From an uncultured Gemmatimonadaceae bacterium (GTDB lineage: Bacteria; Gemmatimonadota; Gemmatimonadetes; Gemmatimonadales; Gemmatimonadaceae), in contig CAWHHI010000003.1 in assembly GCA_963829055.1 (NCBI GenBank), forward strand, positions 96,001-160,000: a stretch of DNA of 64,000 bases, read 5' to 3'. Position numbers and translations under genes: made by a program. The notes below the pieces were generated by a model, which was not told where the DNA came from, made no database searches, and saw only the letters and a list, made by a program, of their open reading frames with translations. Shown piece by piece: positions 220-64,000 of this stretch. Numbering within the stretch: the first letter of the stretch is position 1; each line of letters opens with the position of its first letter.

Positions 220-1857
220 ATGTCCGACCGCCGAGAGTTTTTGAAGAAGACCGGCATTGCTGCCGGCGCGATCGCCGCGAGTAGCGCGCTGCGAAAGGCC
301 GAAGCAGCAACGACCCCGTTCATGGCCCCGCCCGCTTCACCCGCCGTCGCCGCGCCTATGGACGCCGCGACAAAGGAGCTCCTCATGGAGGCGCTCAACG
401 CGGCGAAGATGGGCGGCGCGAGCTATGCCGACGCGCGCATAGCGCGGTATCGCGACAACCAGGTCTTCACGCGCGAGCAACAGATCATCAACGTCGTGGA
501 CCAGGACTCGATGGGCTGCGGCGTGCGTGCGCTGGTGGACGGGACCTGGGGATTCGCGGCGACGCGCAACCTCACGAAGGCCGGGGTGGCTGGAGCGGCG
601 CGTGAGGCGGCGGCGATTGCAAAGGCGAACCGTATCGCGCGTGACCGCGCCGTTCAGCTCGCGCCGTCGCCGTCGTACCCGGACGCGTCGTGGGTGACGC
701 CACACACGATCGACCCGTTCACGGTGGCCATCGAGGACAAGGCCGCATTGCTCCTCAAGGCAAACGCCGAGGCAATGAAGGTGCCGGGCGTGAAGTACGT
801 GTTCAGCGGATTGTTCTTCCGGAAGCAGGAACGTAATTACGCGAATACCGACGGCTCGGTGATCAACCAGATCGTGCTGCAGAGCTGGCCGCTCATGCAG
901 ATCACGGCCGTAGCGCCGGACTTTTCTGATTTCCAGAATCGCGGCAACGTCGTTCAGCCGGCGGGCCGTGGATACGAGTACGTCACCGAGTGCGACCTGC
1001 CGGGGAACTCGGGCAAGTGGGGCGAGGAAGCGGCGCAGAAGCTCAAGGCGAAGCCGGTGGACGTCGGCCGCTACGACCTCGTGCTCGACCCGTCGCATCT
1101 CTGGCTCACGATCCACGAGTCGATCGCGCACCCGACGGAGCTCGACCGGGCGATGGGCTACGAGGCGAACTACGCCGGCACGAGCTTCGTCGCACCGCCC
1201 GAGAAGTATCTCGGGAAGTTCAAGTACGGCCCGGCGTTCATGAACATTCGTGGCGATCGGACGCAGGCGGGGGCGCTGGCGACGATCGGCTATGATGATG
1301 AGGGCGTGAAGCCTGACGACTTCATGATCATCAAGAACGGCGTCGTGAACGACTACCAGACGACGCGCGAGCAGGCGAGCTGGCTCAAGTGGTGGTACGA
1401 CCAGCAGAAGCAGCCGACGCGGTCGCACGGATGCTCGTACGCGGACTCGTGGTCGAGCGTACAGTTCCAGCGCATGCCTAACGTGTCGCTCATGCCGGGC
1501 GAGAAGGACCTCAAGTGGGAAGACCTCATCGCGGCAACGGACCGCGGGATCGCGATCCAGGGTGACGGCTCGTTCTCGATCGATCAGCAGCGCTTCAACG
1601 CCCAGTTCGGTGGGCAGGTGTTCTACGAGATCCGCGGCGGGAAGATCACGGGGATGCTCAAGGACGTCGCGTACCAGATGCGGACGCCGGATTTCTGGAA
1701 CGCGATGGACATGATCGGTGGAAAATCCAGCTACCGGCTTGGCGGGAGCTTCTTCGACGGGAAGGGGCAGCCGGGTCAGGTGAACGCGGTGAGCCACGGC
1801 GCGGTGCCCGCTCGATTCAAGCAGATCAACGTCATCAACACAGGCAGAAAGGCCTGA
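220..1857 (+). CDS. tldD: TldD family metalloprotease with twin-arginine (Tat) signal peptide
   Basis: MSDRREFLK Tat motif plus hydrophobic stretch; HExxxH (IHESIAH); GYDDEG, RMPNVSL and DGKGQP motifs. Confidence 0.9.
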   Translation: MSDRREFLKKTGIAAGAIAASSALRKAEAATTPFMAPPASPAVAAPMDAATKELLMEALNAAKMGGASYADARIARYRDNQVFTREQQIINVVDQDSMGCGVRALVDGTWGFAATRNLTKAGVAGAAREAAAIAKANRIARDRAVQLAPSPSYPDASWVTPHTIDPFTVAIEDKAALLLKANAEAMKVPGVKYVFSGLFFRKQERNYANTDGSVINQIVLQSWPLMQITAVAPDFSDFQNRGNVVQPAGRGYEYVTECDLPGNSGKWGEEAAQKLKAKPVDVGRYDLVLDPSHLWLTIHESIAHPTELDRAMGYEANYAGTSFVAPPEKYLGKFKYGPAFMNIRGDRTQAGALATIGYDDEGVKPDDFMIIKNGVVNDYQTTREQASWLKWWYDQQKQPTRSHGCSYADSWSSVQFQRMPNVSLMPGEKDLKWEDLIAATDRGIAIQGDGSFSIDQQRFNAQFGGQVFYEIRGGKITGMLKDVAYQMRTPDFWNAMDMIGGKSSYRLGGSFFDGKGQPGQVNAVSHGAVPARFKQINVINTGRKA

Positions 1858-1873
1858 GCTCACTGGGCCGCTT

Positions 1874-1957
1874 CACACTACAAGACTACTGATGAACTAC
1901 GAACTGCAGTCCTCAGTCATCAGTAGTCGGTCATGTAGTACTCAGTCTTCTACTTCT
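1874..1957. repeat. Degenerate short-period repeat with inverted halves between tldD and tldE
   Basis: ACTACTGATGA ... TCATCAGTAGT inverted pair within ACTAC/GTAGT-rich sequence. Confidence 0.5.
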
Positions 1958-1973
1958 TTGACCGTTTGATCCG

Positions 1974-3357
1974 ATGAGCTTTCCCAAACGTCTTTTTGAA
2001 CGAACCGAAGTGCCTGATGGCGCGGTCCTGTCTCGTGATGAGTCCAAGTCTCTGATCGACCGGGTCGTGAAGATGTCCAAAGCCGAGAGCGTTCAGGTGA
2101 ACGTCGGTGGCGGGTACTCGGCCAACGTGCGGTTCGCGGATAACCGAGATGTCGACCGCGGGCGGCATCACGGACTACACCGTCGTCATTCAGAGCTCGT
2201 TCGGGAAGAAACACTCTGTCGTAACGATCAACGACGTCTCCGACGAAGCGCTGCAGCGCGCGGTCAAGCAGTCCGAGGACCTCGCGAAGTTGGCGCCCGA
2301 CGATCCCGAAGCGATGCCCGCGTTGCCGCCGCAGCAGTACCAGGAGGTGAACGCGTACTTCGACAGCGTGGCGAACCTGACGCCCGCGGACCGCGCGAAG
2401 GCCGCGCTCACCGCGCTCGATCCCGCGCGAAAAGCCGGCGATCTCGCGACGGCCGGCTTCCTCGTTACCAACGCGTCGTCCACCGCGCTCGGCAACGACA
2501 AGGGGATGTTCGCGTATTACCGCTCCACGAACGCCAACTATACCGTCACCGTTCGAACGAAGGACGGGACGGGCTCGGGTTGGGCTGGCGGCGAGCATAA
2601 CGATTGGAGTCAGCTGGATATCGCCGGCATCAGCCAGCGTGCGCTCGAGAAGGCCAAGCTCTCACGCGCTCCGGTGGCCATCGAGCCGGGGCGCTACACC
2701 GTCATTCTCGAGCCACAGGCGGTCGGCGACCTGGTCCAGCTCATCGGCGGGTACCTGGACGCCCGTTCGGCGGACGAGGGACGCAGCCCGTTCTCGAAGC
2801 AGGGTGGCGGCAACAAGGTGGGCGAGAAGATCATGGACGAGCGGGTCAACCTGTTCTCCGACCCGTTCGATCCGCGTGTGTTGTCGCGGCCGTTCGACGG
2901 CCAGGGCTTCCCGTTAGGCAAGCAGGTGTTCGTCGAGAACGGCGTGCTCAAGCAGCTGTTCTACTCGCGCTTCTGGGCGCAGAAGCAGGGGAAGGTCGCG
3001 ACTGGCGCGCCGACGTCCTACGTCATGAGCGGCGGCGACGCGTCGGTGGAGGACATGATCAAGGGCACGGAGCGCGGCGTCCTGGTCACGCGGCTCTGGT
3101 ACCTGCGCGAGGTCGATCCGCGCACGATCCTGTACACGGGCCTGACCCGCGACGGCACGTTCCTCATCGAGAACGGCAAGATCTCCAAGGCGCTCAAGAA
3201 TTTCCGCTTCAACGAGTCGCCGCTGTTCATGTTGAACAACCTGGAGACGCTGGGCCGACCGGTTCGTCTGGCGGGCACCGAGGCGGGTGGCGCGATCGTG
3301 GTGCCGGCCATCAAGGTGCGAGACTTCAATTTCACCAGTCTGTCGGACGCCGTGTAG
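1974..3357 (+). CDS. tldE: TldE/PmbA family protein; one frameshift near 2146
   Basis: ORF 1974 (..NVRFADN) joins ORF 2107..3357 (..MSTAGG, EPGRYTVILEP, TGLTRDGTFLIENG, FNFTSLSDAV). Confidence 0.85.
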
Positions 3358-3360
3358 GTC

Positions 3361-3462: not shown

Positions 3463-3468
3463 TAACCC

Positions 3469-9702: not shown

Positions 9703-9716
9703 GATGTGGGAACCTC

Positions 9717-11792: not shown

Positions 11793-12568
11793 CCGCGAAC
11801 GTGATGAACACATCCGCGATCGTCCCAGCTGACTTCGCCGGGCGCGTCGTTCTCATCACGGGCGCGGCGCGCGGGCTCGGCCGTGCGGCGGCCGAGCGCT
11901 TCCACGCACGAGGGGCCTTCGTGGCGGTTCACGCCCGCGACATCACTCGCGCCTCGTCGGTCACGAGCGCGCTCGGCGACGGAGCCCTCGCGGTGGACGG
12001 GGATCTCACGCAGGACGGCGTGGCCGATGACCTCGTTAGGCGCGTGATCGACCGGTTCGGGCGTCTCGATGTGCTCGTCAACAACGCCGCCTCGGCACCA
12101 TCCACGCGCCTGGCCGACATTGACAGTGCGGAGTGGCGTGAGACGCTCGAAGTAAACCTCACTGCACCGTTTCTTCTGATTCGCGCCGCGTTGCCGGCGA
12201 TGAAGGCACAGGGCTACGGGCGCATCGTCAACATCTCGTCCACCGCCGGCCGGATGGTCAGCACGCTCGCCGGCGCCCACTACACCGCGTCGAAAGCCGG
12301 CCTGCTCGGCCTAACGAGAGCGGCGGCGAAAGAGCTCGGGCGGTTTGGCATTACCGTGAACGCCGTCTGCCCCGGCATGATCGACACCGAGCTGACGCGC
12401 GAGCACGCGACGCCTGAACGGCTCGCGGAGCTCGCTGCCGGATACCCAGTACCGCGACTGGGGACGCCACGGGAAGTGGCGGACGTGATCTGCTTCGCGG
12501 CGTCCGAGGCGGCCGGCTACATCACCGGTGCGACGTTCGACATCAACGGCGGCGACCTGATGATGTAG
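11789..12568 (+). CDS. SDR family oxidoreductase
   Basis: TGAARGLG, NNA, YTASK, NAVCPG. Confidence 0.9.
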   Translation: MTANVMNTSAIVPADFAGRVVLITGAARGLGRAAAERFHARGAFVAVHARDITRASSVTSALGDGALAVDGDLTQDGVADDLVRRVIDRFGRLDVLVNNAASAPSTRLADIDSAEWRETLEVNLTAPFLLIRAALPAMKAQGYGRIVNISSTAGRMVSTLAGAHYTASKAGLLGLTRAAAKELGRFGITVNAVCPGMIDTELTREHATPERLAELAAGYPVPRLGTPREVADVICFAASEAAGYITGATFDINGGDLMM

Positions 12569-12977: not shown

Positions 12978-12988
12978 CGCGCGGCTGC

Positions 12989-13322: not shown

Positions 13323-16010
13323 CTAATCACTCCGCAGTGCGAGCGTTGGATCGATCGCGATCGCCCGCCGCGCCGGAATCCAGCTCGCCGCGAAGGCCAC
13401 CGCACCGAGCACCACCACACTTCCCACATACGTGAGTGGGTCGGTCGCCTTCACGCCGAAGAGCAGATCAGCCATGAGTCGCGTGGCCGCCAGCGCAGCC
13501 ACCACACCGACCACGAGGCCCAGCACCGCGAGTCGCATCCCCTGCCCCACGACCAGCCGAAGCACGTCCGCCGGACGAGCGCCCAGTGCCATGCGGATGC
13601 CGATCTCGCGCGTCCGGCGTTTCACCGCGTGCGCCATGATCCCATAGATGCCCACGACGGCGAGCGTCAGCGCGACTCCACCGAACACACCGAGCAGCAG
13701 CATCGTGAACCGCGGCTGAGCGACGGAGAGGTCGATCATCTTCGTCATCGTGCGGATGTTCGTGATGGCGATCAGCGGATCGAGATCCCGGACTGCCTGA
13801 CGCGCCGCCGTAGCCAGCAGCAGTGGGTCACCCGCCGTGCGCATGATGACGTACATGGTTTGCGCCGTCGACTCCGTGATCGCGGGCATCTGCTCGTGCA
13901 GCAGGTAGACCTCGTCCGGCACGGGGGCACCGAGTCCCGTACTGCGAACATCTCGAGCCACGCCGACGACCGTGATCCACGGTTCCGTCGGTGAGAACCG
14001 GATCTGTTGGCCAACGGGGTCGCCACCAGGCCAGATCTCACGGGCCGCTGCCTCGTTGATCATCGCCACCGGCGTCGACCCGCCGGTATCGTCCCGGCCG
14101 AACATCCTGCCCTTCATCAGGGCGATAGAGAGAGTTTTGAAATAATCCGCCGTGACGACGCGCACGTTAGGCGACGGCGCCACCGTTCCGCGCGCTCTCG
14201 GGCGACCGAGGATCTCGACGTCCCAGTTACTCCCGCCGGAGACGGGCGGCAGGTCGGACGCGCCCGCGGCGATGGTGACACCGGGCAACGCCCCGACGCG
14301 CTCGATGAGTCGCCGGTAGAAAACGGTGGTCGCGTTAGGATCGTACCGCGCGGACGGGATGGAGAGGTCGATCGCGAGCACGTGGCTCGGGTCGAACCCC
14401 GGGTCCACGTTGCGCAGAGTCCAGAAGCTGCGCACGAGAAGCGCCGCGCCGATGACGACAACGACCGCGAGCGCCACTTCGCCCGTCACGAGCGCGCGGC
14501 CGAGGCGTTGCTGCCCGGTTCCGACGCTGCCTCCGCGCGTTCCTTCCTTGAGCGATGACTGCAACTCCGGTTGCGCGAGCTGCAAAGCCGGCGCGAGGCC
14601 GAAGACGATCCCGGTCGCGAGTGCGATCCCGAGCGTGACGAGTCCGACGGTCGCGTCGATCCGGACGAGCTCGAGCCGTGGAATGGCGTCCGGGTTCACC
14701 GCCAGCAGCGACTTCGTCCCGATCCACGCAAGCAACAACCCGACGATGCCGCCCGCGACTGCGAGGACCGCGCTCTCGGTGAGTAGCTGACGGACGATGC
14801 GTCCGCGATCGGCTCCGAGCGCGAGACGCACAGCGATCTCCCGTTGCCGTGCCTCGCCGCGAGCGAGGAGCAGGTTCGCGACGTTGGCGCACGCGATGAG
14901 TAGTACCAGCCCGACCGCGCCAAGCAGAATGAGGAGCGCCGGGCGGACGTCGCCGACGATCGCCTCGTGCATGGAGATGACCGTCGCGCCGTACCCCGTG
15001 GCGGGCGGGTAGACGTTAGGGTACCGCGCGGCCAAGGCGCGCGTCAGCGCGTTGAGCTCGCGTTGCGCCTGCTCGACCGAGATGTTCGGCGCGAGGCGCG
15101 CGACGCCGCTCAGGTAGTTCGTCGACCGCCCCTCCAGACTATCGGGATTGATGTACAGCGGAATGAACGCTTCCGCGCGCGCGATCGTGGCGTCGGGCGG
15201 AAGAATGCCGATCACGCGTCGGCTGACGCCGTTCATCGTGAGTGACCGCCCGAGTAGCGTTGGGTCGCCGCCGAATTGGCGTTGCCAGAAGTCGTACGTG
15301 ACAATGGTGACGGGCTCGCGACCGGTGCGCCCCTCGTCGCCCTCGAAGTTGCGTCCGCGGAGCGGCGTGATGCCGAGGACGGGAAACAGGTCGCGGGTGG
15401 CGGTAATGCCGCGCACACGCTGGGGCTCGCACGCACCGCCGGAACCGGAGCACCCACTGGTCAGTGTGAGGGCGGTGCCGGTGAACGCGGCGGCGTTCTG
15501 GAACACGTGCGTCAGGCCCTTGTAGTCCATGAACTCGGGCTGCGACATCGAGTAGCGTGAGATGCCGGAACCGCCGAACGACGTGTACACACGAACGAGC
15601 CGGTCGGGCGACGGGTACGGCAGCGGCCGCAGCAGCACGCCGTTCACGACGCTGAAGATGGCGGTGTTCGCCCCGATGCCTAACGCCAGCGTGAGCACCG
15701 CGATGAGGGTGAAGCCCGGGCTCCGGCGCAGGGCGCGGGCGGCATACCGAAGGTCCTGCATCAGCGCTTCCCACATGTCGGCGCGTCTCCGTTCCTGTTC
15801 GAGCAGGTGATCGATCTCCTCGCAACTCCGGCGAACCGCGGACACGTCGCCGAACCGTCGCAGCGCTTCCGCGCGCGCGGCCTCCACCGTCATGCCCTCC
15901 GCGACGTAGTCGTGGACCCGCGACTCGATGTGGAACTGGAGCTCCTCATCGACGTCCGCGGCTGGGTCGGCGCCCCAGAACCGCACGTAGCGGCGCCACT
16001 TCGGGATCAT
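13323..16010 (-). CDS. ADOP-type duplicated ABC permease (MacB/FtsX x2)
   Basis: [52 protein letters not shown] overlap with padR. Confidence 0.9.
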
Positions 16011-22700: not shown

Positions 22701-22734
22701 CGCTCAGCACCTTCGGCTGGTAACGGAGCCGCGA

Positions 22735-43675: not shown

Positions 43676-43703
43676 CGAGTCCTTCACCCTGCAGAACCCA
43701 CGC

Positions 43704-46844: not shown

Positions 46845-46868
46845 CCTCACTACCATGAGTTGGCTGCC

Positions 46869-48605: not shown

Positions 48606-48675
48606 GGGCCGGCGGGTGCGGTTGACATGGGGTTGGGCCGGGGGGTAGCCTCCCGTCCTCCCCTTCCGCCCCGTG

Positions 48676-50289: not shown

Positions 50290-51723
50290 TGACGCCGCGC
50301 TCCCTTCTTCGCCGCCGACGCCGGCGCTTCCTCACGCGCGAGCAGGCCAAGGCGCTCGCCGATCGCGTGCTGTCGTTCGCGAAGGCGGACGAGACGCGCG
50401 TCGACGATCACGAGCGGCTGGAGCGGCAACACGCGCTTCGCCGGCGGCGAGATCACGACGTCCGGCGGCACCACCGACACGACGGTCACGGTCACGTCAG
50501 CACGATCGGCAAGCGGCGCGCATCGGCGTCGACGAACGTGCTCGACGACGAGAGCCTCGCGCGCACGGTCGACCTCGCCGAGCGACTGGCGAAGCTATCG
50601 CCCGAAGATCCGGAGATCGATGCCGGAGCTCGGGCCGCAGACGCTACGCGACCGGTCGAACGGCTTCTTCGAGAGCGACCGCCGACCTCGGCGCCGGAGG
50701 CGCGCGCCGCGGCAGCGAAGCGCGTCGATCGAGCGCGCCGAGCAGGCGGGCAAGAGCGCGGGCGACATGTTCGTCGCCGGATTTCTCGAGGCGAACGCCG
50801 GCGCGCGCGCCATCGCGACGAGCCGCGGGCTGTTCGCCTATCATCGCGTCGACGGACGCGAATCTGTCGACGACGGCGCGCACGCCGGATGGAACCGGCT
50901 CGGGGTGGGCGTCCGGCGGCGCGCGCGACTGGGGCGAGCTCGATCCGGCAGCGCTCGGCACGACGCGCCGCGCAGAAGGCGGTCGCGATCGCGCAATCCC
51001 GATCGCGATCGAGCCCGGGATGTACACGGTCGTGCTCGAGCCGCAGGCGGTGGCCGACCTCGTGCCGCAGCTCGTCGGCGCGTTCAATGCGCGCGCGAAC
51101 GACGAAGGCCGCGGCACGTTCTCGCAAGACGGGTGGCGGCACGAAGCTCGGCGAGAAGATCGCTCGACGAGCGCGTGACGATCTACTCGGATCCGACCGA
51201 CCCTGACCTGCTCGCGCAGCCGTTCGACGGCGAAGGCTTGCCGCTCAAGCGACGTCGTGTGGATCGAGAACGGCATTCTCAAGAACTTCTCGTACTACTC
51301 GCTTCTGGGCGCAGAAGCAGGGCAAGGACGGCGACGGGTGGCGGCGGTGGCGGTGGCGGCGGCGGTGGAGGCGGATTCGGCGGCGGTCGCCGCGGCGGTC
51401 TCAAGATCGTCGGCGGCACGAAGACGCACCGACGAGCTCATCGCCGGCACGCAGCGCGGCATTCTCGTCACGCACTTCTTCTACATCCGCTCGCTCGACC
51501 AGCGCACGGTGCTGCTCACGGGCCTGACGCGCGACGGCACGTTCCTCATCGAGAACGGCAAGATCACGCAGGCGCTCAAGAACTTCCGCTGGAACGAGAG
51601 CCCGCTGTTCATGCTGAACAAGATCGAGGAGATCGGAAAGGCGGAGCGCACGGCGGCAGGCCAGGTGATGCCGGCCTTCGCGTGAAGGATTTCAACTTCA
51701 CGTCGTTGTCCGACGCTGTTTGA
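50289..51723 (+). CDS. tldE: Second TldE/PmbA; many frameshifts; poly-Gly insert
   Basis: EPGMYTVVLEP, TGLTRDGTFLIENG and FNFTSLSDAV in scattered frames. Confidence 0.7.
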
Positions 51724-51960
51724 GGAAGGAGGAAGGAGGCCTGAGGAAGGAGGCGGCCTTCGGAGGGCGGACGGCGGAGGGCGGAGGCAAAAGGGATGTC
51801 ATCCCGAGGAGCGACAGCGACGAGGGACCTTCTGTGATGCCATCGTAGCAATGCGGCTACGAGCACGTTCGAGAGGGTCCACGCTGCGCTCAGGATGACT
51901 TCACAGACGGTCCCTCGCTGCCGCTCGGGATGACACCGCTCCTTCCTCAGGCCTCCTTCC
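51724..51960. repeat. GGAGGAA/GGCGGA heptamer run plus GTCATCCCGAG...CTCGGGATGAC element (51797-51935)
   Basis: GGAAGGAGGCCTGAGGAAGG and its inverse CCTTCCTCAGGCCTCCTTCC bracket the palindromic element. Confidence 0.8.
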
Positions 51961-52732
51961 TGTGCCTCGCGGCCTCCACCAGCCGGCGAACCCGAACCTC
52001 GTCCGTCTCCTCCCACGCCGCTTCGTCGTCAGGCAGCGCCTTGCGCACCCGCACGCCCGGACGCATGGGCCCACCCCCGCCGCGCGTTAGGCGCGTCAGG
52101 CGGACGTGCACCTCCCGCACACCCGTGCCCGCGACGATCTCGCCGATGTTCTCCTCTCGGATCGTTCCGCCGGCCATCACCACCGCACGATCGCCCGCCC
52201 GACCAACGAGTGATGCCAGAACCGGGATGCCCTCGCGCGCCGTCGACGCTCCACCAGACGTGAGTACTCGGCCCACTCCCGCCGCGATCACCGCATCCAG
52301 CGCCTGCTCGAGGTCCGGCGCGAAGTCGAACGCGCGATGGAACGTGACCGGCAATGTGCCCGCCGCCTCTACCAGGGACCGCGTCTGCGGACCGTGGACC
52401 GTGCCGTCCGCATGCAACGCGCCGATCACCACACCATCGGCGCCGAGCTCGCGGGCGGCCACGATGTCACGCCGCATGACGTCGAGCTCGATGTCGGAGT
52501 AGACGAAGCCACCACCGCGCGGGCGGATGATGACGAACACCGGAATCGATACGGCCTCCCGACACGCCTCGATCATCCCGGCGCTCGGCGTCGTCCCGCC
52601 GTCGAACAGCGCGTCACACAGCTCGAGCCGCCCCGCGCCGCCGCGTTCGGCCGCCATCGACGACTCCACGGAGTCTACACACGCCTCGACCAGTACGGCT
52701 CCCGCCCCGTCCGTCCTCGCGGGACTAGTCAC
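51947..52732 (-). CDS. cutC: Copper homeostasis protein CutC family
   Basis: E.C.DS, RLELC, GGTTPS, IRPR.G.FVY, TFHRAFD, LTSGG. Confidence 0.9.
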   Translation of the reverse strand: MTSPARTDGAGAVLVEACVDSVESSMAAERGGAGRLELCDALFDGGTTPSAGMIEACREAVSIPVFVIIRPRGGGFVYSDIELDVMRRDIVAARELGADGVVIGALHADGTVHGPQTRSLVEAAGTLPVTFHRAFDFAPDLEQALDAVIAAGVGRVLTSGGASTAREGIPVLASLVGRAGDRAVVMAGGTIREENIGEIVAGTGVREVHVRLTRLTRGGGGPMRPGVRVRKALPDDEAAWEETDEVRVRRLVEAARHRKEA

Positions 52733-52738
52733 GCCGGC

Positions 52739-53482
52739 TCACCGCTGCGCCGGAACGAACTGCCACCGTACACGAACGGACGCCTGGACCACGAGCTCTC
52801 CCGCTTCGACGGGCGTCGGCGCGGCCATCGCCGTCTGTGCCATGACTCGGCCCATCATTGGCTGCGGTGGGTTGTACGGGTCGATCGCGATCTCCGCCAG
52901 GGCGCCTAACGAGCCACCGGCCGCTGTCGCCGTCGCCTCGGCGTCGGCACGCGCCTTGGCGACCGCCTTCTGCAGCGCCTCGCGTCGCGCGGGGTCCGGA
53001 TTCGACGCGAACAGGTTGAGCGACCCGAGATTCGTGGCGCCCGCGCCGAGCGCGGCGTCGATCACCTTGCCGATGGCGTCGATGCTCCGGACCTCGATCT
53101 GCACCGTGTTGTTCGCGCGGTACCCGGTGACCCGCGGCCCCTGACCGCTCTGCTGTGCGTACTCGGGATAGACGTTGTATCCCGACGTCCGGATCTGAGC
53201 GGCCGCGACGCCCGCGGCTTTGACCGCGTTGATCACGCGCGTCTGCTTGGCTGCGTTGGCCGAGGCAGCAGCGGCCGCGGACTGGCCCTGGGACTCGACC
53301 GCGACGTTGAGCATCGCGCGGTCCGGTACCACCTGCGCTTCGCCAACGGCGCTCGCGGAGATGCTGGGCGGCGGCGGTGGCGGCGCGCCGGGTTGGCCAC
53401 TGAGAGGCAGCGTCACGACAGGAACCGCGAGAACGGCGAGAACGGGAACGCGCCGGGCGACAGCGCGAAAGAACGAATGCAT
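52739..53482 (-). CDS. SIMPL (DUF541) domain protein
   Basis: GGAGG RBS; signal peptide; PDRA, GY.A.N, AV.KARA.A. Confidence 0.85.
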   Translation of the reverse strand: MHSFFRAVARRVPVLAVLAVPVVTLPLSGQPGAPPPPPPSISASAVGEAQVVPDRAMLNVAVESQGQSAAAAASANAAKQTRVINAVKAAGVAAAQIRTSGYNVYPEYAQQSGQGPRVTGYRANNTVQIEVRSIDAIGKVIDAALGAGATNLGSLNLFASNPDPARREALQKAVAKARADAEATATAAGGSLGALAEIAIDPYNPPQPMMGRVMAQTAMAAPTPVEAGELVVQASVRVRWQFVPAQR

Positions 53483-53581
53483 GGGCACCTCCATCGGAAG
53501 CGGTGAACGCGTGACCGATGGTACACCACTGCGGGCTACGTACCCGCCTCCATGCCCGCGCTCGCCCAATCTACTCGCCCG

Positions 53582-54397
53582 TCAGAGCACCGTCACCGGC
53601 GTGAAGCGCACTCCGCGAATCTTTCGCGAGCGGAAGAACGCGTACACCGCCGGCCGCACGATTACGCGCCGGCTCGCGAGCGAACGCTTGTCGTGCACCG
53701 GTATCGCCCAGTTGCCTGTACCGAAACGCTCCGAGGTGCGCGCGAAGTCGGGGATCGTCACGACGCCTTCGCCGACGTACGCCGGAATGAACGGCTCGGC
53801 GACGGCGTCGAACCATCCGTCGCAACCACACTGCGCACACGGCGCCTCGGCCCCCGCCCGCCCGCGCACCAGCCCGCGTGCCGCGGCGATCATCGGCGGC
53901 ATCGCATGGTCGATGAGGAGCTGCTTCCACGGGAGCCGATGGCCCTGCATGTCCTCGACGTCGCCGAAGGCAATGCCTGTCAGCGAGCTGCTCTCCATCT
54001 CGCCAGCGAGCGAGTCATGGACGATGATTTCGTCGTCGATGGATCCTACCGGACCGCTCTTCGGGATCTCTTTCCCGGTGATGACGAGCGCCGACGTCTG
54101 CTGCAGGCCGTCGCCGCACGAGCCGCAGACCGCCGACTCATCGTACGTCATCCCGGCGCGCGGGTGCCCTTCGTGGCTGTGATGAATCCACACGAACATG
54201 TGGAGGAGCCGCGCCGCGGAAAGCTCGCGGACAGTCGGCTCGAACACACGATGGACGGTGGGCGGGGGTATGGCGATCGACCGGGCCGCGTGACCGAGCT
54301 TGGAGACGGTTTCCTCGTTCGGGATGCAGAGCTTCTGGAACCCGCTCAGGAGCGCGGGATCGACGACGACGTCGAGCATCCCGGCCTCGAGGAACAT
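53582..54397 (-). CDS. Hypothetical protein with two CxxCG motifs; true start may be GTG 54461 via a frameshift
   Basis: CGSCG and CAQCG motifs; fills the gap between minus-strand genes. Confidence 0.6.
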   Translation of the reverse strand: MFLEAGMLDVVVDPALLSGFQKLCIPNEETVSKLGHAARSIAIPPPTVHRVFEPTVRELSAARLLHMFVWIHHSHEGHPRAGMTYDESAVCGSCGDGLQQTSALVITGKEIPKSGPVGSIDDEIIVHDSLAGEMESSSLTGIAFGDVEDMQGHRLPWKQLLIDHAMPPMIAAARGLVRGRAGAEAPCAQCGCDGWFDAVAEPFIPAYVGEGVVTIPDFARTSERFGTGNWAIPVHDKRSLASRRVIVRPAVYAFFRSRKIRGVRFTPVTVL

Positions 54398-54639
54398 TCT
54401 GCTGCGCGCGGCCGCGGTCGTTCGGGAGATAGTTGTACGTGACGTAGATCTTTTCGGGCACGTGATACAAGTCTGGTAACTGTTTGCGCCGCGACGATTT
54501 CGGTTCCTCGCGACACGTGAGCGACGAGGATCCGTGCCCGTTGGAAACGCATCCGTGGCTGCTGCTCGTCGAGCCTGGAAACGGCAACTCACCGCGGATG
54601 ACGGACAGCACGCCAGACGGTTGGGTCGCGAGGTCCAAC

Positions 54640-54895
54640 AGCGACGCAGAATCGCAGGCGGCCGGGAGCGCGCGACGCAGGAGGACGCAGAGCACCGCAA
54701 CACACCTGGAGGCAAGGTCCGTGCTCGCCGAGCCACGAAAAAGGGGAACGGCCTCGGGACGCATTGGCTCGCCGGAGGTCGTTCCCCTCTTTCACAGGCT
54801 CGGCACATCTGCCGGCGTCCCGAGCGGCCGTTTTCTGCGTCCGTTCTGCGTTGCGGCCGCGAAGCGGCCGCCTGCGTATTCTGCGTCGCTGTTGG
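54640..54895. repeat. GACGCAG/CTGCGT inverted short-repeat element
   Basis: Three GACGCAG on the left, TCTGCGT runs on the right; resembles 13085-13195. Confidence 0.6.
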
Positions 54896-54940
54896 AATTG
54901 CGCGCGGATGCGTGGCTCAATGAGGCCGGCAGCCGCGCGA

Positions 54941-56206
54941 TCAGGCCCGCGCCGGCGCGGCAGCTGGGCGCGCAGCCCGGAGACTCGGCCGGAACAGCAC
55001 CGCGAAGATGAGCAGCACCACCAGTGCGCCCATTGACGGCACCAACCAGATCGACCGCCAGTCGTGCGTCACCGTTAGGCAGCTCTTCGCCGCCGCCGCG
55101 GCCGCGTCGCACGCGGGGTTTGGCGCCGAGTACCGGTTCACCACCGCCCCCGACACGAACGCGCCGATGAAGTATCCGACACCGTTCGTGACGAAGTTGA
55201 TGAATCCCTGGGCCGCTGCACGGATACGCTCGCCGGCCTTCTCGTCCGTATAGATCTGCCCCGCCACGAAGAAGAAGTCGTAACACACGCCGTGCAGCAG
55301 GATGCCCGCCCAGAGCAGCCACATCCCGCTGCCCGCGTTCCCCTGGCTGAACGCCAGATAGCGGAGCGCCCACGCCAGCATGCCGACGAGCATGATACCG
55401 CGGATGCCGATCCGCTTGAGCACGAACGGCAGGAGGAGCAGGAAGCCCATCTCGCTCCACTGGCCGAACGACTGGATGAACGCCGGCTCCGGCGCGCCCG
55501 TCTCGTTCAGAAACAGGTTCGCGAACGTGTAGTAGAACTGCAGCGGGATGCAGAGCAGGAACGACCCGACGACGAAGATCAGGAAGTCGCGATCCCTGAG
55601 CAGCGACAGCGCGTCGAGGCCGAACGCGTCACGGGCGTTGAAACGCGTGCCGGCGCCCTTGGGCGGCGTGTGCGGCAGCGCGAACGAGAAGAGACCTAAC
55701 GCGAGTGACCCGATCGCCGCGACGCGCATTGGCAGCGCGAGCGCGTCCGCCTTGAGCACCTTGCCGATCACGATGCCGGCCACGATCCACCCGAACGTGC
55801 CGAGCATGCGGATGATCGGGAAATCCTTGCCCGGATCGCGCACGTGGTGGAACGAGATCGAGTTGGTCAGGGAGAGCGTCGGCATGTAGCACAGCGCGTA
55901 CGCGATCAGCAGCGGGTAGAACGTCGCGAACGTCGTCTGCGTCGACACGAGGTACAAGAGCACGGCGCCCACGATGTGCAGCACCGCGAGCAGCTTCTCG
56001 GTGGCGAAGAACCGATCGGCCACCATCCCGAGCACGAACGGCGACACGAGCGCCGCGATGGCCGTCGCGCCGTACGCGAGGCCGACCTGCTGCGGCGTGA
56101 AGTTGAGCGTCTGCGACAGGTACGTCCCCATCGTCACGAACCACGCGCCCCACACGAAGTACTGCAGGAACATCATGGCCATCAACTTCGCGCGCGTCGC
56201 GGTCAT
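54941..56206 (-). CDS. Nucleoside:H+ symporter family MFS permease (NupG/XapB-like)
   Basis: [41 protein letters not shown]. Confidence 0.9.
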
Positions 56207-56982
56207 GGCAGCGTCCTGATCTTGATGTTGCGGAGCGCGAGCACGCCGTTGTGATCGCCCTGAATGGCCAGGTGGCCGGCTTTCGATCTGCCGTAGTTCG
56301 GCCAGTCCTTGAACTTGCTGGCCTTGACCTTCGCTTCCCAATCCGCGCTCCACAGCTCGTACTGCACCACCTTCTGCCCGTTGAGCCAGTGCTCCACGTG
56401 CGCGCCGCGGGCGATGATGCGCGTGCTGTTCCACTCGCCGGCGGGCTTCACGATGCCAGCGGGCGGCGCGTACAGCGCGTAGGCCGCGGCGGCAGACGTT
56501 AGGCGGTTCTTGCCGTCGGGCGCGTTCGCGTCGTCGAGCAGCTGATACTCCACCGCGCTCCAGTAGACCTTCTCGTATTCCTCGGTCGCCCGATAGAAGA
56601 TCCCGCTGTTTCCGCCCGAGCCTATCCGCCACTCGAGCGCGAGCTCGAAGTCGCCGAACTGGTCATTGGTGAGGATGTCATCGACGCTCGAGTCCTTGGC
56701 GAGCAGACCGTCCGTCACATGCCAGCCGTTAGGCATGGTCGTCGCCTTGTACCCCCGCCACCCGTTCGTCGTCCGCCCATCGAACAGCAGCCGCCACCCC
56801 GCCGCCTGCTCGGCCGCCGTCAGCACGTTGACCGATGTCGGCGTGGCGGTGGAGGCCCGGGGCGTCGTGCCGTTGACGAGAGTGCCGGTCTCACTGCTGG
56901 CCTTGGCGCACCCGGCGCTGACGCCGGCTGCGAGAAGCAGCACCGTGATGCTCGAATCGAGAAGAAGACGACGCGGTCGCAT
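56203..56982 (-). CDS. DUF1080 (3-keto-disaccharide hydrolase-like) lipoprotein
   Basis: Lipobox [32 protein letters not shown]. Confidence 0.88.
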
Positions 56983-57147
56983 GAGCCGTGAGTAATGGCG
57001 GCGAGGTGAGCGGTCCTCCCTCGACGGGCGACGCGCTTGCGGGATGTTCGCAGGAGCATGCGCCGCTGAATGGCACGAGGCAAGAGGACCGCGTACGGAT
57101 CGTGCGTGATCGCTCGGCTCCCGTCATCGCCCTTGCAGGACACGCCT

Positions 57148-58206
57148 ATGACTCCGCAACGCTTCAGCGCCATTCTTCTGCTCGCGGGCGGCGTCGCCCT
57201 TGGTGTCGTCCTCGACCGTTCCGCGCGCCAGGTCGTTCGCCCGCTGGAAGCAAACCAGACCAGGGCACAGACGGTCGCCGCGCCAGCACGGAACGCGTCC
57301 GACTCCAATGCCGTGACGCAAGACGAAGCGACGATCATCCGCGTGGCGCGCGAGATCACGCCCACCGTCGTGAGCGTCTCGCAACCGGAGGGCTCGGGCT
57401 CCGGCATCATCGTGAACGGCGACGGCATCATTCTCACCAACGCGCACGTCGTGGGTGCGTCGCGCAACGTGGAAGTCGGACTGGCCGACGGACGCACGGT
57501 CACCGGTCAGGTGGCCGGCGTGGACCGATCCATCGACGTTGCCGTCGTCCGCGTGTCGGCGCAGAATCTCCCCGTCGCGCCCATCGGCGATTCCGACCGC
57601 CTGCAGGTAGGCCAGTCGGCAATCGCGATCGGCAACCCGCTCGGTCTCGAGCGAACGGTGACGAGCGGCGTCGTATCCGCCGTCAACCGGAATCCCCGCG
57701 GCATCAGCCTCGACGGACTCATTCAGACGGACGCCGCGATCAGTCCGGGCAACTCGGGCGGCCCACTGGTGGACTCCCACGGTCGGGTGATCGGGATCAA
57801 CACCGCCGTCCTCCAGGGCGCGGGCGCGACCGGACTCGGGTTCGCCGTCCCGATCAACCTGGCCAACGAGGTCGTTCGGCAGATCCTCACGACCGGCCAC
57901 ATCACGCGCGCATACCTCGGCGTGAGCTTCGCGGACATCGATCAGGAAATCGCCCGTCAGTTCCGACTCCCCGTGAATCAGGGCATTATCGTGGGCGCGG
58001 TGGAACCCGGGTCTCCGGCTGCCCGCGCCGGAATTCGCCCGCAGGACATCATTGTCCGGGGCAACAACACGGCGGTTGCCAGCGGTGGCGACCTGAGACG
58101 GTTGCTGCGCAGCCTCACCCCCGGAACGACGATCCGATTGGAAGTGGTCCGACCTGGCGGTCGGACCACGATCCCTGTGCAGCTCGGTCAGGCACCGACG
58201 ACCTGA
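57148..58206 (+). CDS. HtrA/DegS-like S1C serine protease with one PDZ domain
   Basis: TNAHVV, IQTDAAI.PGNSGGP; AGGA RBS. Confidence 0.92.
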   Translation: MTPQRFSAILLLAGGVALGVVLDRSARQVVRPLEANQTRAQTVAAPARNASDSNAVTQDEATIIRVAREITPTVVSVSQPEGSGSGIIVNGDGIILTNAHVVGASRNVEVGLADGRTVTGQVAGVDRSIDVAVVRVSAQNLPVAPIGDSDRLQVGQSAIAIGNPLGLERTVTSGVVSAVNRNPRGISLDGLIQTDAAISPGNSGGPLVDSHGRVIGINTAVLQGAGATGLGFAVPINLANEVVRQILTTGHITRAYLGVSFADIDQEIARQFRLPVNQGIIVGAVEPGSPAARAGIRPQDIIVRGNNTAVASGGDLRRLLRSLTPGTTIRLEVVRPGGRTTIPVQLGQAPTT

Positions 58207-58286
58207 CGGGAGCCGACAGCCATTCGTGTCGCAGCTCGCGCCTGCTATAATGGTGTCTTTATAGTCCGACACTACTGGCGTCAGGG

Positions 58287-58633
58287 TTAGGCACATCGCG
58301 CCGGGGCCGGTGGGAACTACGATTTTGCGGATGACACCGAAACAGCCGGATACGGCTTTGCATTGACGCTGGCTCTCGCCGGACTCTGACATAATGGGAA
58401 CGGCCGCTCGGGAGACTCCTGCGTCCCGAGCGGCCGTTCCCAAAAATCCCGGCTCGTTGCGGAAGGAGCCAGACCTATCGACGCGGTATCCTGCTTCTTC
58501 CGCGCCATCCGCCAAATCGCAGTTCCCACCGACCGCGGCGCGATGATGCCTCAATGCAAAGCCGTATCCGGTAGTTTCGCAGTACGGATCCGCACAATCG
58601 TAGTTCCCACCGGCCCCAGCGCGATGATCCAGA
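58287..58633. repeat. About 345-bp composite element, copy 2 (inverted)
   Basis: Reverse complement of 19521-19865. Confidence 0.85.
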
Positions 58634-58866
58634 GAGCCGCGGCTATCGCTCCGCACGATCGCCGCCTAGAGAACCTTTTGCCGCGACGGTGTGTCTCACC
58701 CACGCCGTGACCGGACTACCCGTGGTAAGGGTTGTCGTATCGGGGCATAGCGGAGCTTGCGCGCTGATGAGCAACCTCCAATCATCGGTCGCGGTCCGCG
58801 CCTGCTTCCCGTTAGGGCGTGCGCGCCGAGTGTCATCCTCGTCCCATCCTGCAGCCTTAGCCTCCC

Positions 58867-60258
58867 ATGACACGGATCCCGCGCAAGCGATGGATCACCT
58901 TGGCGGTGATTCTCGCGGCCGTTGCTGGTGTGTCGGTCTGGTTGTTCACCCCCGCCAGCGCCAAGACAGATGACTCGGTTCTCGCGCGGGTGAAGAAAGG
59001 CGACTTCCACGTCGTTGTCACCAGCGCCGGTGAGCTCCGCGCGAAGAAGTTCGTGCAGGTGCAGGGACCACTAAACATGCAGCAGGCCGACATCTACCAG
59101 ACGAAAATCTCCACGCTCGTCCCCGAGGGGACGGTCGTGAAGGAAGGTGATGTCGTCGCCGAGCTCGATCGCTCAGGGATAGCGGCGAAGCTGTCCGAGG
59201 TATCGCTCGCACTCCAGAAGGCCGAGGCGCAGCTCACGCAGGCGCAGCTCGACTCCACGCTCAACCTCTCGACGGCGCGTGAGGACATGAAGACGATGGA
59301 GCTCTCGCTCGAGGAGAAGCGCCTCGCGAAGGAGCAGGCCGCCTACGAATCGCCTAGTGTCAAGCGACAGGTCGAGATCGACTACGAGAAGGCCACGCGT
59401 CAGCTCGCGCAGGCGAAGGTCAACTACAAGACGAAGACCGAGCAGGCGATCGCGAAGATGGCGGAAGTCGGCGCCGACGTGCAGCGCCAGCGGAACAAGC
59501 TCAAGAGCGTTCAGGAAGTCCTCGGCGCCTTCACCATCAAGGCGCCGTCGCCCGGCATGGTGATCTACGTGAAGGAGTGGAACGGCAAGAAGAAAGGCAT
59601 CGGCTCGCAAGTCAGTGCCTGGGATCCCACGGTCGCCACGCTTCCGGATCTCGGTCAGATGGAGTCGCTCACGTACGTGAACGAGATCGACGTGCGTAAG
59701 GTCGCGTCGGGCCAGAAGGTCACTATCTCGCTCGACTCCGACCCGACGAAGAAGCTGCCCGGAACGGTGGTCGCGGTCGCGAACGTCGGCGAGCAGCGGC
59801 CTAACGCGGACGCCAAGGTCTTCGAGGTGAAGATCCTGCTCGCGCAGGCCGACACCACGCTCCGCCCGGGCATGACGACGTCGAACGCGATCGAGACCAA
59901 CACGATCAAGAACGCGCTGTTCGTGCCGCTCGAGGCCGTCGCTGTGGAGGGCACGACGCCGTACGTCTACAAGCGCGACGGTGCTCGCGTGACGAAGCAG
60001 CAGGTCGAGACCGGTCTCGCGAACGACAACGAGATCGTCGTCGCGAAGGGGCTCGAGAAGGACGACCGCGTGTTCCTCACCCCGCCGGCCGACCGGGACA
60101 AGATCGAGATGAAGACGTTGCCCGGCGCGAAGCCGGGCACGGGCGGACTGCCGCAGCCGGGTCCCGCCGACACCCCATCCACGGCCAAGCCAGTGCCGGT
60201 GAAGCCGGCGGCACCGGCCGCCACGCCAACGCCATCGGGCGTCGCCACGAAGTCCTGA
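58867..60258 (+). CDS. Periplasmic adaptor (MacA/HlyD-like)
   Basis: N-terminal TM, EG..VK.GD lipoyl half-motifs, coiled coil, LRPGMT. Confidence 0.88.
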   Translation: MTRIPRKRWITLAVILAAVAGVSVWLFTPASAKTDDSVLARVKKGDFHVVVTSAGELRAKKFVQVQGPLNMQQADIYQTKISTLVPEGTVVKEGDVVAELDRSGIAAKLSEVSLALQKAEAQLTQAQLDSTLNLSTAREDMKTMELSLEEKRLAKEQAAYESPSVKRQVEIDYEKATRQLAQAKVNYKTKTEQAIAKMAEVGADVQRQRNKLKSVQEVLGAFTIKAPSPGMVIYVKEWNGKKKGIGSQVSAWDPTVATLPDLGQMESLTYVNEIDVRKVASGQKVTISLDSDPTKKLPGTVVAVANVGEQRPNADAKVFEVKILLAQADTTLRPGMTTSNAIETNTIKNALFVPLEAVAVEGTTPYVYKRDGARVTKQQVETGLANDNEIVVAKGLEKDDRVFLTPPADRDKIEMKTLPGAKPGTGGLPQPGPADTPSTAKPVPVKPAAPAATPTPSGVATKS

Positions 60259-60273
60259 ACCTCCGGACAACCA

Positions 60274-61666
60274 ATGTCGGTTCGTGATCTCGCGCGCGCC
60301 CGCGCCGAGCTGACCGCGCACGTCCTGTTCAGTCTCCGGACGGCCATCGAGGCCGTCGGACACAACACGCTGCGGGCGTCGCTCACCTCACTCGGCATCC
60401 TGTTCGGCGTCGCGTCCGTCATCGCGATGCTCGCGATCGGCAAAGGCGCCGAACAGGAAATCCTGGAGCAGATGAAGCTCCTCGGCTCCAACAACGTCAT
60501 CATCACGCCGCTCGTCGAGCAGAAGGAGGAGAAGGCGAAGGATGACGGCACGAAGGAGCCGAAGAAGTTCTCGCCCGGACTCACGACGCTGGATGCACGG
60601 TCGATCCTCGACGATCGTGCCTAACGTTCGCACGACGAGCGGCGAGGTCGTCCTGCAGACGCTCGTGACGCGCGAGGGCCGGCGCCGGTCCGGCAAGGTC
60701 GTCGGCGTCGACACGACCTACTTCGATCTCCTGAACCTGAACGTCGCCGAGGGCAAGCGGTTCGCGCCCATGCAGGTCGCCGATGGCCTACCCGTCGCGA
60801 TCATCGGGCACGGCGTGAAGACGCGCTTCTTCACGACCGAAGAGCCGATCGGAAAGCCCATCAAGGTCGGCAACGTGTGGCTCACGGTGGTCGGGGTGCT
60901 CGAGGACCGCAAGCTCTCCGACCAGACGTCGCAGAAGCTCGGCATCCGCGACGCGAACATGGACGTCTACGTTCCACTCTCGACGATGCTGCTCCGCTAC
61001 CGGAACCGCGCGCAGGTCACGGAGCGCGACGTGCAGCAGGCGTCGCGCGAGGTCAACGACGACCCTAACGCGACCGCGAACGAGGACGCCGAGCAGCGCG
61101 CCGAGCGCACGAACTACCACCAGCTGGATCGCGTGATCGTGCGCGTGGACGACGCGAGCAAGGTGACCGGCGTCGCCGAGGTGCTGCGGCGCATGCTCAC
61201 GCGCCGGCACAATCAGGTGGTCGACTTCGAGATCAGCGTGCCGGAATTGCTGCTCAAGCAGGAGCAGAACACGAAGCGCCTCTTCAACGTCGTGCTCGCC
61301 GCGATCGCCGCGATCTCGCTCATCGTCGGCGGCATCGGCATCATGAACATCATGCTGGCGTCGATCCTGGAGCGCATCCGCGAGATCGGCGTGCGACGCG
61401 CCGTCGGTGCGAGTCAGAAAGACATCCTCGCGCAGTTCCTCAGCGAGGCGGTGCTCATCAGTCTCGCCGGCGGTGTCGCCGGCATTCTCGTCGGCGGTGG
61501 ACTGAGTCTCGGCATCGAGCGCATCGCCAAGATCAATACGATCGTCTCGTTCTACTCGGTGTTCATCGCCTTCGGGGTCTCGATCACCGTCGGCGTCGTC
61601 TTCGGCTTCGTGCCCGCCTGGCGCGCGGCGAAACAGGATCCGGTGGTATGCCTGCGTTACGAATGA
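60274..61666 (+). CDS. MacB-like ABC permease without ATPase domain; frameshift near 60611
   Basis: LTSLGILFGVASVI, ISLIVGGIGIMNIML, ERIREIGVRRAVGA. Confidence 0.88.
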
Positions 61667-63123: not shown

Positions 63124-63125
63124 CG

Positions 63126-63244
63126 GGACTGGGGACAAGGGACTGGGGACTGGGGAAACCTCGGGATGCTACTCTCACGTAGAGAGGCATCCCGAGGTTT
63201 TTCGTTCCCAGTCCCGAGTCCCCAGTCCCCAGTCCCGTCCCCAG
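63126..63244. repeat. Inverted (GGGGACT)n / (AGTCCCC)n arrays around a long hairpin; terminator-like
   Basis: AAACCTCGGGATGC...GCATCCCGAGGTTT stem followed by Ts. Confidence 0.8.
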
Positions 63245-63247
63245 GTC

Positions 63248-64000
63248 ATGACCGCTCTCCGTGATGGACTCCGCGTCCTCCGACGCTCCCCCGGCATGGC
63301 GACTCTGGCGGCGATCGCCCTAGGGCTCGGAATCGGGTCCACGACCACGATGTACTCGATCACGCGCGGCATCCTCCGGCAACTTCCGGTCGACCAGCCC
63401 GAGCGATTGATGCACGTGGCCATGACCGACCGCACCGAAGGCGACGAATACCTTCGGATCCCGGTCGCCGACATCGTCGCCCTGCGTGAACAGCAGCGGA
63501 GCTTCGAGTCCATTGCCGCCTACGAAGACGTGCCGGTCAACATCGGCGACACCGACCATCGCGCGGAGCGACTCTCGGGCGGAACGGTGACCGCGAGCCT
63601 CTTCAGAGTCCTGCGCGTTAGGCCTCTGCTCGGACGCACGCTCTCGATCGACGATGAACGACCCGGCGCACCGCCCGTCGCGGTGCTGAGCCACACGCTC
63701 TGGCAGAACCGGTACGCGGGCGATCGCTCCGTTATCGGTCGCACGATTCGGGTCAACGGCGCGCCGACCACGGTGGTGGGAGTCATGCCGGAGGGATTCG
63801 GCTTCCCTACGAAGGAGCAACTGTGGACGCCGCTCGCGCTCGACGCCAACCGCGGAAGCGCCTCGGGCGACAGGACCCCATCGTCCTACAACGTCATTGG
63901 CCGGCTCCGCGACGGCGCGACACGCGAGAGCGCAGGTGCGGAGATCGCGGCCATTGGGCGTCGACTCGCCATTGCCGATCCGAAAGCGCACGAGGGTCGT
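63248..64000 (+). CDS. ADOP-type ABC permease, 5' part (runs off the window)
   Basis: MTALRDGLRVLRRSPG..IALGLGIG.TTTMYS; GVMPEGFGFP. Confidence 0.85.
   Translation, partial: MTALRDGLRVLRRSPGMATLAAIALGLGIGSTTTMYSITRGILRQLPVDQPERLMHVAMTDRTEGDEYLRIPVADIVALREQQRSFESIAAYEDVPVNIGDTDHRAERLSGGTVTASLFRVLRVRPLLGRTLSIDDERPGAPPVAVLSHTLWQNRYAGDRSVIGRTIRVNGAPTTVVGVMPEGFGFPTKEQLWTPLALDANRGSASGDRTPSSYNVIGRLRDGATRESAGAEIAAIGRRLAIADPKAHEGR

Follow-up and report, generated by a model that had tools for sequence, protein, structure and literature searches.

Background

Few words saturate bacterial genomes as densely as the one treated here, the known cases being the DNA uptake sequences (DUS) of the Neisseriaceae, the uptake signal sequences (USS) of the Pasteurellaceae, the highly iterated palindrome HIP1, and Chi. 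DUS and USS are asymmetric words of 7–10 bases, present at about one copy per kb on both strands and within genes in several reading frames, with enriched tripeptides, dialects, and an absence from recent acquisitions, and they have been explained by molecular drive (PMC2817400). In this study we follow a dispersed heptamer, CCTAACG (CGTTAGG on the opposite strand), which an earlier note had singled out as a candidate genome-wide signal in a window of 64,000 nucleotides from an uncultured Gemmatimonadaceae bacterium (contig CAWHHI010000003.1, positions 96,001 to 160,000). We find that the word is over-represented throughout the genome at the level of DNA and, beyond what that note had seen, that its letters are those of an integron R box, that it recurs in a second phylum and in phages, and that neighbouring copies exclude one another over about 135 bp.

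HIP1 is a hyper-abundant 8-mer, kept at orthologous sites and found in all frames, whose function is still open (PMC5861425) and which raises transformation efficiency (10.1101/2024.09.10.611283); under the methyl-directed ratchet put forward by Elhai, sites should saturate with distance and the effect should be equally strong on each replicon (PMC4390886). Chi and the FtsK orienting polar sequences (KOPS) share with our word the form of an asymmetric octamer, and Chi is over-represented in those phages that do without recombinases (PMC3784561). Integrons, finally, are characterized by R and L boxes, an AAC triplet, and attG sites, and transformation supplies substrates to their integrase, IntI (PMC12614218). 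The earlier note knew of no description of the word, and we found none in the literature on these taxa, in which subscription journals were thinly covered; the available parts of PMC12378983, PMC8946536, PMC8618304, and PMC4670013 hold nothing on it.

Results

A word that fills its genome

The genome to which the window belongs (G000; 7.78 Mb in 20 contigs) contains 6,391 copies (3,154 and 3,237 in the two orientations), 25 times the 249 expected under an order-2 Markov model, the expectation being 90–263 when the word is masked, and every contig carries it at 0.64–1.09 per kb. In the gene set of our own caller, which is approximate (6,786 genes, 72% coverage), coding sequence holds 4,034 copies against 320–347 in five within-gene synonymous shuffles. 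That the signal acts genome-wide on the DNA and not on the protein, as the earlier note had proposed, is borne out by its use of four frames and by its removal in the synonymous shuffles. The codon fractions which that note had suggested measuring are 58% of all TTA, 21% of CTA, and 9% of AGG codons lying inside the word, together with 14% of CCT, and 277 of 844 TAA stops have the form CC-TAA-CG. Log-odds over the synonymous alternatives are 4.0 for Leu-Thr (593 of 2938), 3.9 for Pro-Asn (855 of 1481), 5.5 for Leu-Gly (1285 of 5700), and 4.7 for Val-Arg (428 of 3856), these four favoured frames differing in whether one or two changes are needed to form the word. Synonymous opportunities are filled 50–250 times above the prediction from codon usage, with an occupancy that is flat over the codon-bias index and over gene class (91 of 165 against 2670 of 5004), independent of whether the gene has a distant homologue, and little dependent on the class of third-position GC content.

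The word is also sharp. With the other seven positions held fixed, GCCTAACG itself has 5,004 copies and the tolerated variants carry A (827) or C (428) at the first position, A (583) at the third, or A (435) at the last; GTCTAACG and GGCTAACG are not favoured among the synonymous opportunities of G000. Flanks are diverse, the commonest 17-mer context accounting for 8 of the 6,391 copies. Low-GC islands and foreign contig ends are free of the word, and the genome contains many word-free gaps of 7–16 kb. When copies from part of the window and from further loci are aligned to congeneric orthologues at 79% identity, 54 of 102 are shared, compared with 24% for all 7-mers. Up to 6 bp from a shared copy, 11% of four-fold degenerate sites differ, against 42%, a contrast that arises partly by construction.

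The window is a local sample of this signal. Its GC content is 66.5%, not the 68% that the earlier note had assumed, and the count made there (at least 60 copies, 32 as CCTAACG and 28 as CGTTAGG, 44 of them extending to GCCTAACG) turns out to be exact, with all 19 example coordinates and all three peptide assignments correct. Dinucleotide-shuffled windows average 2.83 copies with a maximum of 7, none of 100 reaching 60. By frame, 17 copies are Pro-Asn, 9 Leu-Thr, 17 Leu-Gly, and 5 Val-Arg, and 12 lie outside called genes. The features in question are the following:

1477..63622, 32 on the + strand and 28 on the - strand: 60 dispersed CCTAACG/CGTTAGG copies, the local sample of the genome-wide signal
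12310..12316, + strand: Leu-Thr-frame copy in the SDR gene 11804-12568, read GGC CTA ACG AGA GCG (GLTRA)
15679..15685, + strand: copy read antisense as GCG TTA GGC (LALGIG) in the MacB/FtsX permease gene 13323-16010 (- strand)
26530..26536, + strand: one of five copies inside the paralogous MacB/FtsX permease gene 24159-26849 (- strand), its antisense reading being GCG TTA GGG (LALGIG)
22696..22702, + strand: copy supplying the TAA stop of an M24 peptidase gene (end 22700)
37592..37610, + strand: two copies separated by 12 bp, nearer to each other than any other pair in the window, and not in a called gene
41401..61400, no strand: stretch used for finding congeneric orthologues

Contigs from four independent metagenomes align to 42–62 kb of the window at about 99% identity, and none of the 40 differences listed, beside which there are 1,159 others, falls in a copy. 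In the same part of the window PmbA/TldD and MacB genes are broken into pieces (49243-51685 and 60274-61666); judging by indels that short-read contigs have near 50151, 50233, and 51814, at least the split at 49243-51685 is probably an assembly error.

Mutual exclusion of neighbouring copies

Pairs of copies closer than 50 bp occur in G000 at 0.25 of expectation, about a four-fold depletion that recovers by about 500 bp, and control words in the same test lie near or above 1. Occupancy of opportunities rises from 11% with a neighbour at less than 50 bp to 65% beyond 400 bp, and the penalty exerted by a neighbour is fitted by 3.26±0.24 × exp(-d/135±10 bp). It is equal in all four orientations, upstream and downstream, and persists over gene borders (-2.35 against -2.40); a rare-codon or translational cause could be ruled out, its effect being only -0.1, and no helical phasing of the copies in G000 was seen. 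In this genome, then, the word has an advantage at the level of DNA that is free of orientation and saturates over about 135 bp. GC content at four-fold sites is also higher around filled than around unfilled isolated opportunities, by +1.9, +1.2, +0.9, +0.75, +0.6, and +0.2% over 300 bp, a small halo with a reach similar to that of the exclusion; around four control words the profile is nearly flat. Close pairs are scarce too in a sample of G014, another rich genome (8 against 21 at less than 100 bp), and in a sample of G304 there are 10 against 26 at 100–300 bp, but 16 against 13 at less than 100 bp.

Distribution in two phyla

The comparison with related genomes that the earlier note had proposed finds the word in all six congeneric genomes examined and on two plasmids of the cultured Gemmatirosa kalamazoonensis, at 36 per 50 kb on one and 35 on the other, each copy having the G; named Gemmatimonadaceae records share it in dispersed form. 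Together with best plasmid matches to Gemmatirosa, these records make Gemmatimonadaceae the most likely family of the organism. Among 41 relatives all seven members of genus g1 are rich (350–680 per Mb), as is G014 (1,250 per Mb), eight are intermediate (37–224 per Mb), and 25 have 6–65 copies in all. Across 301 genomes of the phylum, densities above 500 per Mb are found in four and densities of 34–234 in 14, all within the window's order. Rich lineages are scattered among poor ones on an RpoC tree, a quick version with several open forks (the short rows G020 and G040 were omitted) that shows the scatter and not the number of origins. The unpublished genomes G013, G085, G124, G203, and G531 entered the distribution tallies only. 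G293 was dropped as a clean motif-poor control within a genus, because two near-complete rpoC copies (C27 and C34) mark it as a mixed bin though its contamination is listed as 1%. A small element with integrase and primase in G304 (L087, G304:C4, 20,952 bp) carries the word as its host chromosome does, with 17 copies in 20 kb.

A GTDB-wide scan for three GCCTAACG at fixed spacing gave at least 127 loci, 80 of them with flanks, and among the matches listed were repeats, integron arrays, Gemmatimonadaceae, and, unexpectedly, Chthoniobacterales (Verrucomicrobiota), of which four genomes have 2,152–5,186 copies each. The word stands at 33–1,426 per Mb in 79 of 81 genomes of the Chthoniobacterales family to which genome G322 belongs, against 6 of 201 genomes in a sample of the class. 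The dialect of this family is GCCTAACGA, with A in 95% of copies, dialects being graded and lineage-specific. Encoded tripeptides in G322 exceed their reverses 7.6-fold (PND), 5.2-fold (PNE), and 3.1-fold (SLG), and the excess of PNx tripeptides in G000 is 1.5–2-fold.

Word-rich phages

Viral scans gave at least 192 loci, the first 13 without a clearly rich virus; 20 of the other loci, at least 179 in number, passed the filter, and of the ten read site by site five have dispersed in-gene copies, four are attC-like, and one is mixed, most remaining viral matches being chance or attC-like. Two loci with tailed-phage structural and lysis genes (L350 and L366) carry 3.5–3.7 copies per kb. L350 (3.5 per kb) has the word at 18 of its 21 synonymous opportunities, compared with 4,034 of 16,954 in G000, and its spacing has a coefficient of variation of 0.61 (p=0.012). 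A CheckV-complete virus of 45.6 kb has 37 copies, and a 56.5-kb contig in an Acidobacteriota bin (G609:C114; L524-L526) is a tailed phage, with terminase and major head genes, that has 112 copies in the dialect of G000. Its copies are not significantly evenly spaced (p 0.18–0.46), and its Rad52-like gene is found almost only in the window's family; ArdC-like and glucosyltransferase-like proteins are also encoded. L432 and L428 mostly use the +A dialect. These phages appear to infect word-bearing soil bacteria, their inferred hosts. Four IMG/VR loci (L372, L411, L416, and L424) have same-strand runs of attC-like R'' boxes between small genes and are possibly phage-borne cassette arrays.

Identity with an integron box

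R boxes follow the consensus RYYYAAC (GTTRRRY on the other strand), and the target consensus of IntI is loose. GCCTAACG is the attC R box of soil integron arrays, GTTAGGC on the opposite strand, and the advantage described above is seen on the chromosome, on plasmids, on phages, in two phyla, and in the letters of att boxes. In motif-poor relatives the few copies form same-strand runs about 550 bp apart, which are cassette arrays; in one of them, G027, the R'' box is GCCTAACG in 26 of 29 attC and R' reads GCCTAACA on the other strand in 25 of 29. This R'' is also that of arrays in named records of Acidobacteriota and Capsulimonadaceae, which lack dispersed copies. The array of G000 itself, in which the box variants ACCTAACG, GCATAACG, and GCCTAACA also occur, lies at C20:119,000-209,000 (L027), with attC that are partly degenerate and an IntI that is divergent and scores at the cut-off (265.7 bits); at C4:2,850-3,281 (L028) there is an N-terminal fragment of IntI by itself. 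Once the word is masked, the most enriched words of G000 are CCTAACA (12-fold) and GCATAAC (5-fold), both found as boxes in this array. An origin of CCTAACA by deamination was rejected, nGC-CTA-ACA having been seen once against 593. Chthoniobacterales att boxes read TCTCGTTAGRY, consistent with A at +1, and in the motif-poor G543, a single poor case, the attI box shows the A that its family's dialect has at +1.

The dispersed copies share these letters with attC, attI, and attG, yet they are single boxes without L boxes or hairpins, standing by the thousand in core genes. They lack the inverted R''-L''-L'-R' structure, true attC in G000 being confined to the C20 array; of 72 inverted pairs within about 180 bp roughly seven look attC-like by eye, and close inverted pairs are depleted. 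Inverted terminator pairs, common for DUS and USS, are not in excess in G000.

Discussion

Proposed molecular drive and the search for a reader

Because the word fills genes of two unrelated groups and of phages, we suppose a reader protein that favours word-bearing DNA. The best reading, put forward tentatively, is molecular drive by short-tract DNA transfer or gene conversion, resembling that of uptake sequences and directed by such a reader; exclusion, halo, and filling together are, we infer, its marks. A host protein would read (G)CCTAACG sequence-specifically on DNA in either orientation, and word-bearing DNA would be passed on preferentially when short homologous stretches are replaced, either at the uptake step, as with DUS and USS, or just after uptake within the cell. 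Conversion tracts would be from one hundred to a few hundred bases long, an added copy would bring no gain where an older one already carries the tract, and frequent conversion would raise local GC. The R box of soil integron cassettes may have been the source of the specificity or the target to which it was tuned; the occurrence of one word in two phyla, and the lineage dialects, would then be accounted for, and phages would acquire the word by the same drive or exploit the reader. With DUS and USS the word has in common its over-representation, tripeptide enrichment, absence from acquired DNA, and a host with competence machinery; it differs in its letters and phyla, in the 135-bp exclusion, in a phage density above that of the host, and in its identity with an integron box.

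Several observations weigh against molecular drive. A scale of 135 bp is short for ordinary transformation fragments, which run to kilobases. Phage virion genes exceed the host in density (3.5 and 2.0 per kb), which is hard to account for by a cell-surface receptor. Genome-wide, G000 does not favour GTCTAAC, the second attC variant; 1.19 Mb of G322, with an occupancy of 66–96%, show neither exclusion nor a detectable halo (standard error of the halo 0.3–0.5%); and the small halo of G000 could arise if a bound protein protects the DNA. Motif-poor genomes have ComEC just as often, and no reader protein was found.

Eight candidate reader families were compared with the word by presence and absence, and none tracks it. 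ComEC occurs in 62 of 64 and in 5 of 5 genomes, G000 has DprA and pilus genes, and PilMNO, pilins, and a ComEA-like protein were among the competence machinery found; since motif-poor genomes have this competence machinery as well, it does not discriminate. ComEC and ComEA were rejected as readers, and the correlation with com and pilin genes that the earlier note had looked to does not hold for the presence of ComEC. In G322 a ComEA-type helix-hairpin-helix domain stands at the rear of a fusion (L284:1495-2427), the front of which we take to be a thermonuclease domain. A secreted nuclease of the MjaV type was rejected, being found in 18 of 21 tested genomes of G322's family, including the motif-poor G543, and in 0 of 45 others of the window's order; the copy in G000 sits on a foreign contig end of 55% GC, and that in G322 (L295:17872-18630) is a restriction-enzyme-like protein with an apparent signal peptide, a putative secreted nuclease. 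A Rad52 protein with a zinc ribbon, related to genes of two motif-rich phages, is present in all seven genomes of genus g1 and in G304, but was rejected because it was not found in rich G014, G240, and G297 or in any of 12 genomes of G322's family, and is present in poor G009, G011, G068, G099, G265, and G293. Its G000 form (L527:4185-5117, that is C16:357,185-358,117) is encoded on the chromosome; this annealing protein of the Rad52 family bears an acidic tail and a zinc ribbon that has no name, 22 of 44 further genomes of the family have a match to it, and the ribbon is found again on other proteins as well as in two phages rich in the word.

It is possible, if on balance doubtful, that two soil lineages, abundant and unrelated, acquired or independently evolved a reader tuned to the integron-cassette box, the box having been driven as a by-product into chromosomes, plasmids, proteomes, and phages at thousands of sites. 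Such a reader might serve the capture of cassette-bearing DNA from the soil pool.

A possible binding site for a structural or protective protein

In the main rival reading the word would instead be the binding site of a chromosome-wide protein, a nucleoid organiser or a mark of self, with a range of about 150–300 bp; weak selection would then fill sites until coverage saturates, and phages would copy the word for protection or to use the protein. We hold this to be conceivable, though not likely. It accords with an exclusion that is free of orientation and crosses gene borders, and with phage densities above the host's (3.5 per kb in L350, 112 copies in G609:C114, 37 in the 45.6-kb virus), for which Chi-rich phages are a precedent (PMC3784561), and the GC halo could reflect reduced damage under bound protein. 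Against this, the host tolerates its many 7–16 kb gaps, evenness of spacing in G609:C114 is not significant, the match to the attC box is left unexplained, and equal strength across gene classes and replicons suits neutral drive as well. A comparison of G000 with 37% of G322 gave 479 shared homologues, of which 92, mostly small, were scanned in Pfam, with no candidate for such a protein or for any other reader.

Integrase, polarity, and methylation

That the integron integrase makes or favours the sites, as attG-like targets or by aiding the incorporation of incoming single-stranded DNA, seems improbable. The word is identical to attC and attI boxes, the words that head the masked genome are boxes of the G000 array, and transformation feeds IntI its substrates (PMC12614218). 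IntI presence does not follow the word, however: with the TIGR02249, PF00589, and PF13495 profiles IntI exceeds the cut-off in 24 of 41 genomes, mostly motif-poor ones, with four copies in poor G293; no IntI was found in G322 or G004, both rich, and that of G014, the richest genome, is in three pieces. IntI is neither necessary nor sufficient for the enrichment and was rejected as reader. Large arrays of the same box occur in genomes without dispersed copies, no stand-alone IntI N-terminal domain is common to the four rich genomes searched, and IntI needs little beyond the AAC triplet, whereas the word is sharp.

A directional signal for a helicase-nuclease or translocase, like Chi or KOPS, is very unlikely. 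The word is an asymmetric 7–8-mer enriched in phages as Chi is, with a slight excess on the KOPS strand (2011:1881 in G000), yet this amounts to a polarity of 51.7%, compared with about 90% for the ordinary KOPS that are separately present in the same contigs. At the dif site on contig C16, KOPS flip from 49:3 to 10:64 where the word counts 161:203 and 246:244, which bears out the earlier note's view that it is unpolarised. The exclusion, an indirect test, is the same for like and opposite orientations. AddAB/RecB nuclease domains, found in poor genomes, were not found in rich G001, G014, G240, and G297 and were dropped as readers, as was XerD, whose arm of dif differs from the word.

We think it highly improbable that a methyl-directed mismatch-repair ratchet, as proposed for HIP1, created sites until its repair range was saturated. 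The saturation with distance and the equal strength on all replicons are what it predicts (PMC4390886), and the word shares with HIP1 the conservation at orthologous sites. Unlike HIP1, CCTAACG is not a palindrome, differing from its own reverse complement, and it is absent from the methylated motifs of G. kalamazoonensis, whose plasmids bear it: a single-molecule real-time (SMRT) methylome of 2014 at about 100x gives RGATCY, ATGCAC, and CCAGN7TCA alone (PMC3974934). Neither C5 methyltransferase (PF00145) nor Vsr was found in any of seven rich genomes of the window's family, including a complete one, and both were rejected as readers; N6 and N4 methyltransferase families were not searched. Near copies there is no gradient of substitution rate, four-fold divergence being 0.40–0.44 at all distances from 6 to 1,200 bp, and the deamination product is all but missing, as given above. 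The ratchet would thus have to work without a mark and without a rate gradient, and of the systems that the earlier note had offered, enrichment driven by methylation or repair is disfavoured.

An artefact, codon effect, peptide motif, or mobile repeat has practically no chance of being the explanation: G000 does have chimeric contig ends and frameshifts, and 14 copies lie in one longer repeat, but a cultured isolate and dozens of independent assemblies carry the word, which stands in four frames, in stops, and in intergenic DNA, has diverse flanks, and vanishes in synonymous shuffles.

The word acts like the highly iterated genome signals and yet belongs with neither HIP1 nor Chi nor KOPS, and its mechanism is possibly new. 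It crosses a phylum boundary, reshapes proteomes (up to the 7.6-fold tripeptide excess), and enters phages, and it already serves as a marker of chimeric contigs, mis-binned contigs, and phage hosts. The measured interaction length of 135 bp and the more than 40-fold range of density among relatives make drive and function distinguishable by experiment in cultured G. kalamazoonensis. If the word is an uptake or recombination signal, adding it should render hard-to-manipulate soil bacteria transformable; if its reader is tuned to the cassette box, it would add a third class to the uptake-like signals and supply the first link between integrons and genome-wide sequence evolution.

Other features of the genome

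The ends of several G000 contigs (C6:1-55,000, C6:591,800-end, C11:1-44,000, and C19:1-9,500) are motif-free or motif-poor and are probably chimeric joins; the sampled ends of C6 and C11 carry housekeeping genes, and that of C19 has 55% GC and a gene typical of G322's family. An intergenic repeat of about 180 bp, resembling a miniature inverted-repeat transposable element, occurs at 14 places in G000 (for example C3:334,101 and C20:259,236) with one copy of the word in each. Two further repeats, GTCATTCCGA (719 copies) and ACTGGGGACT (212 copies), which we take to be similar to repetitive extragenic palindromes, have about ten copies each in the window.

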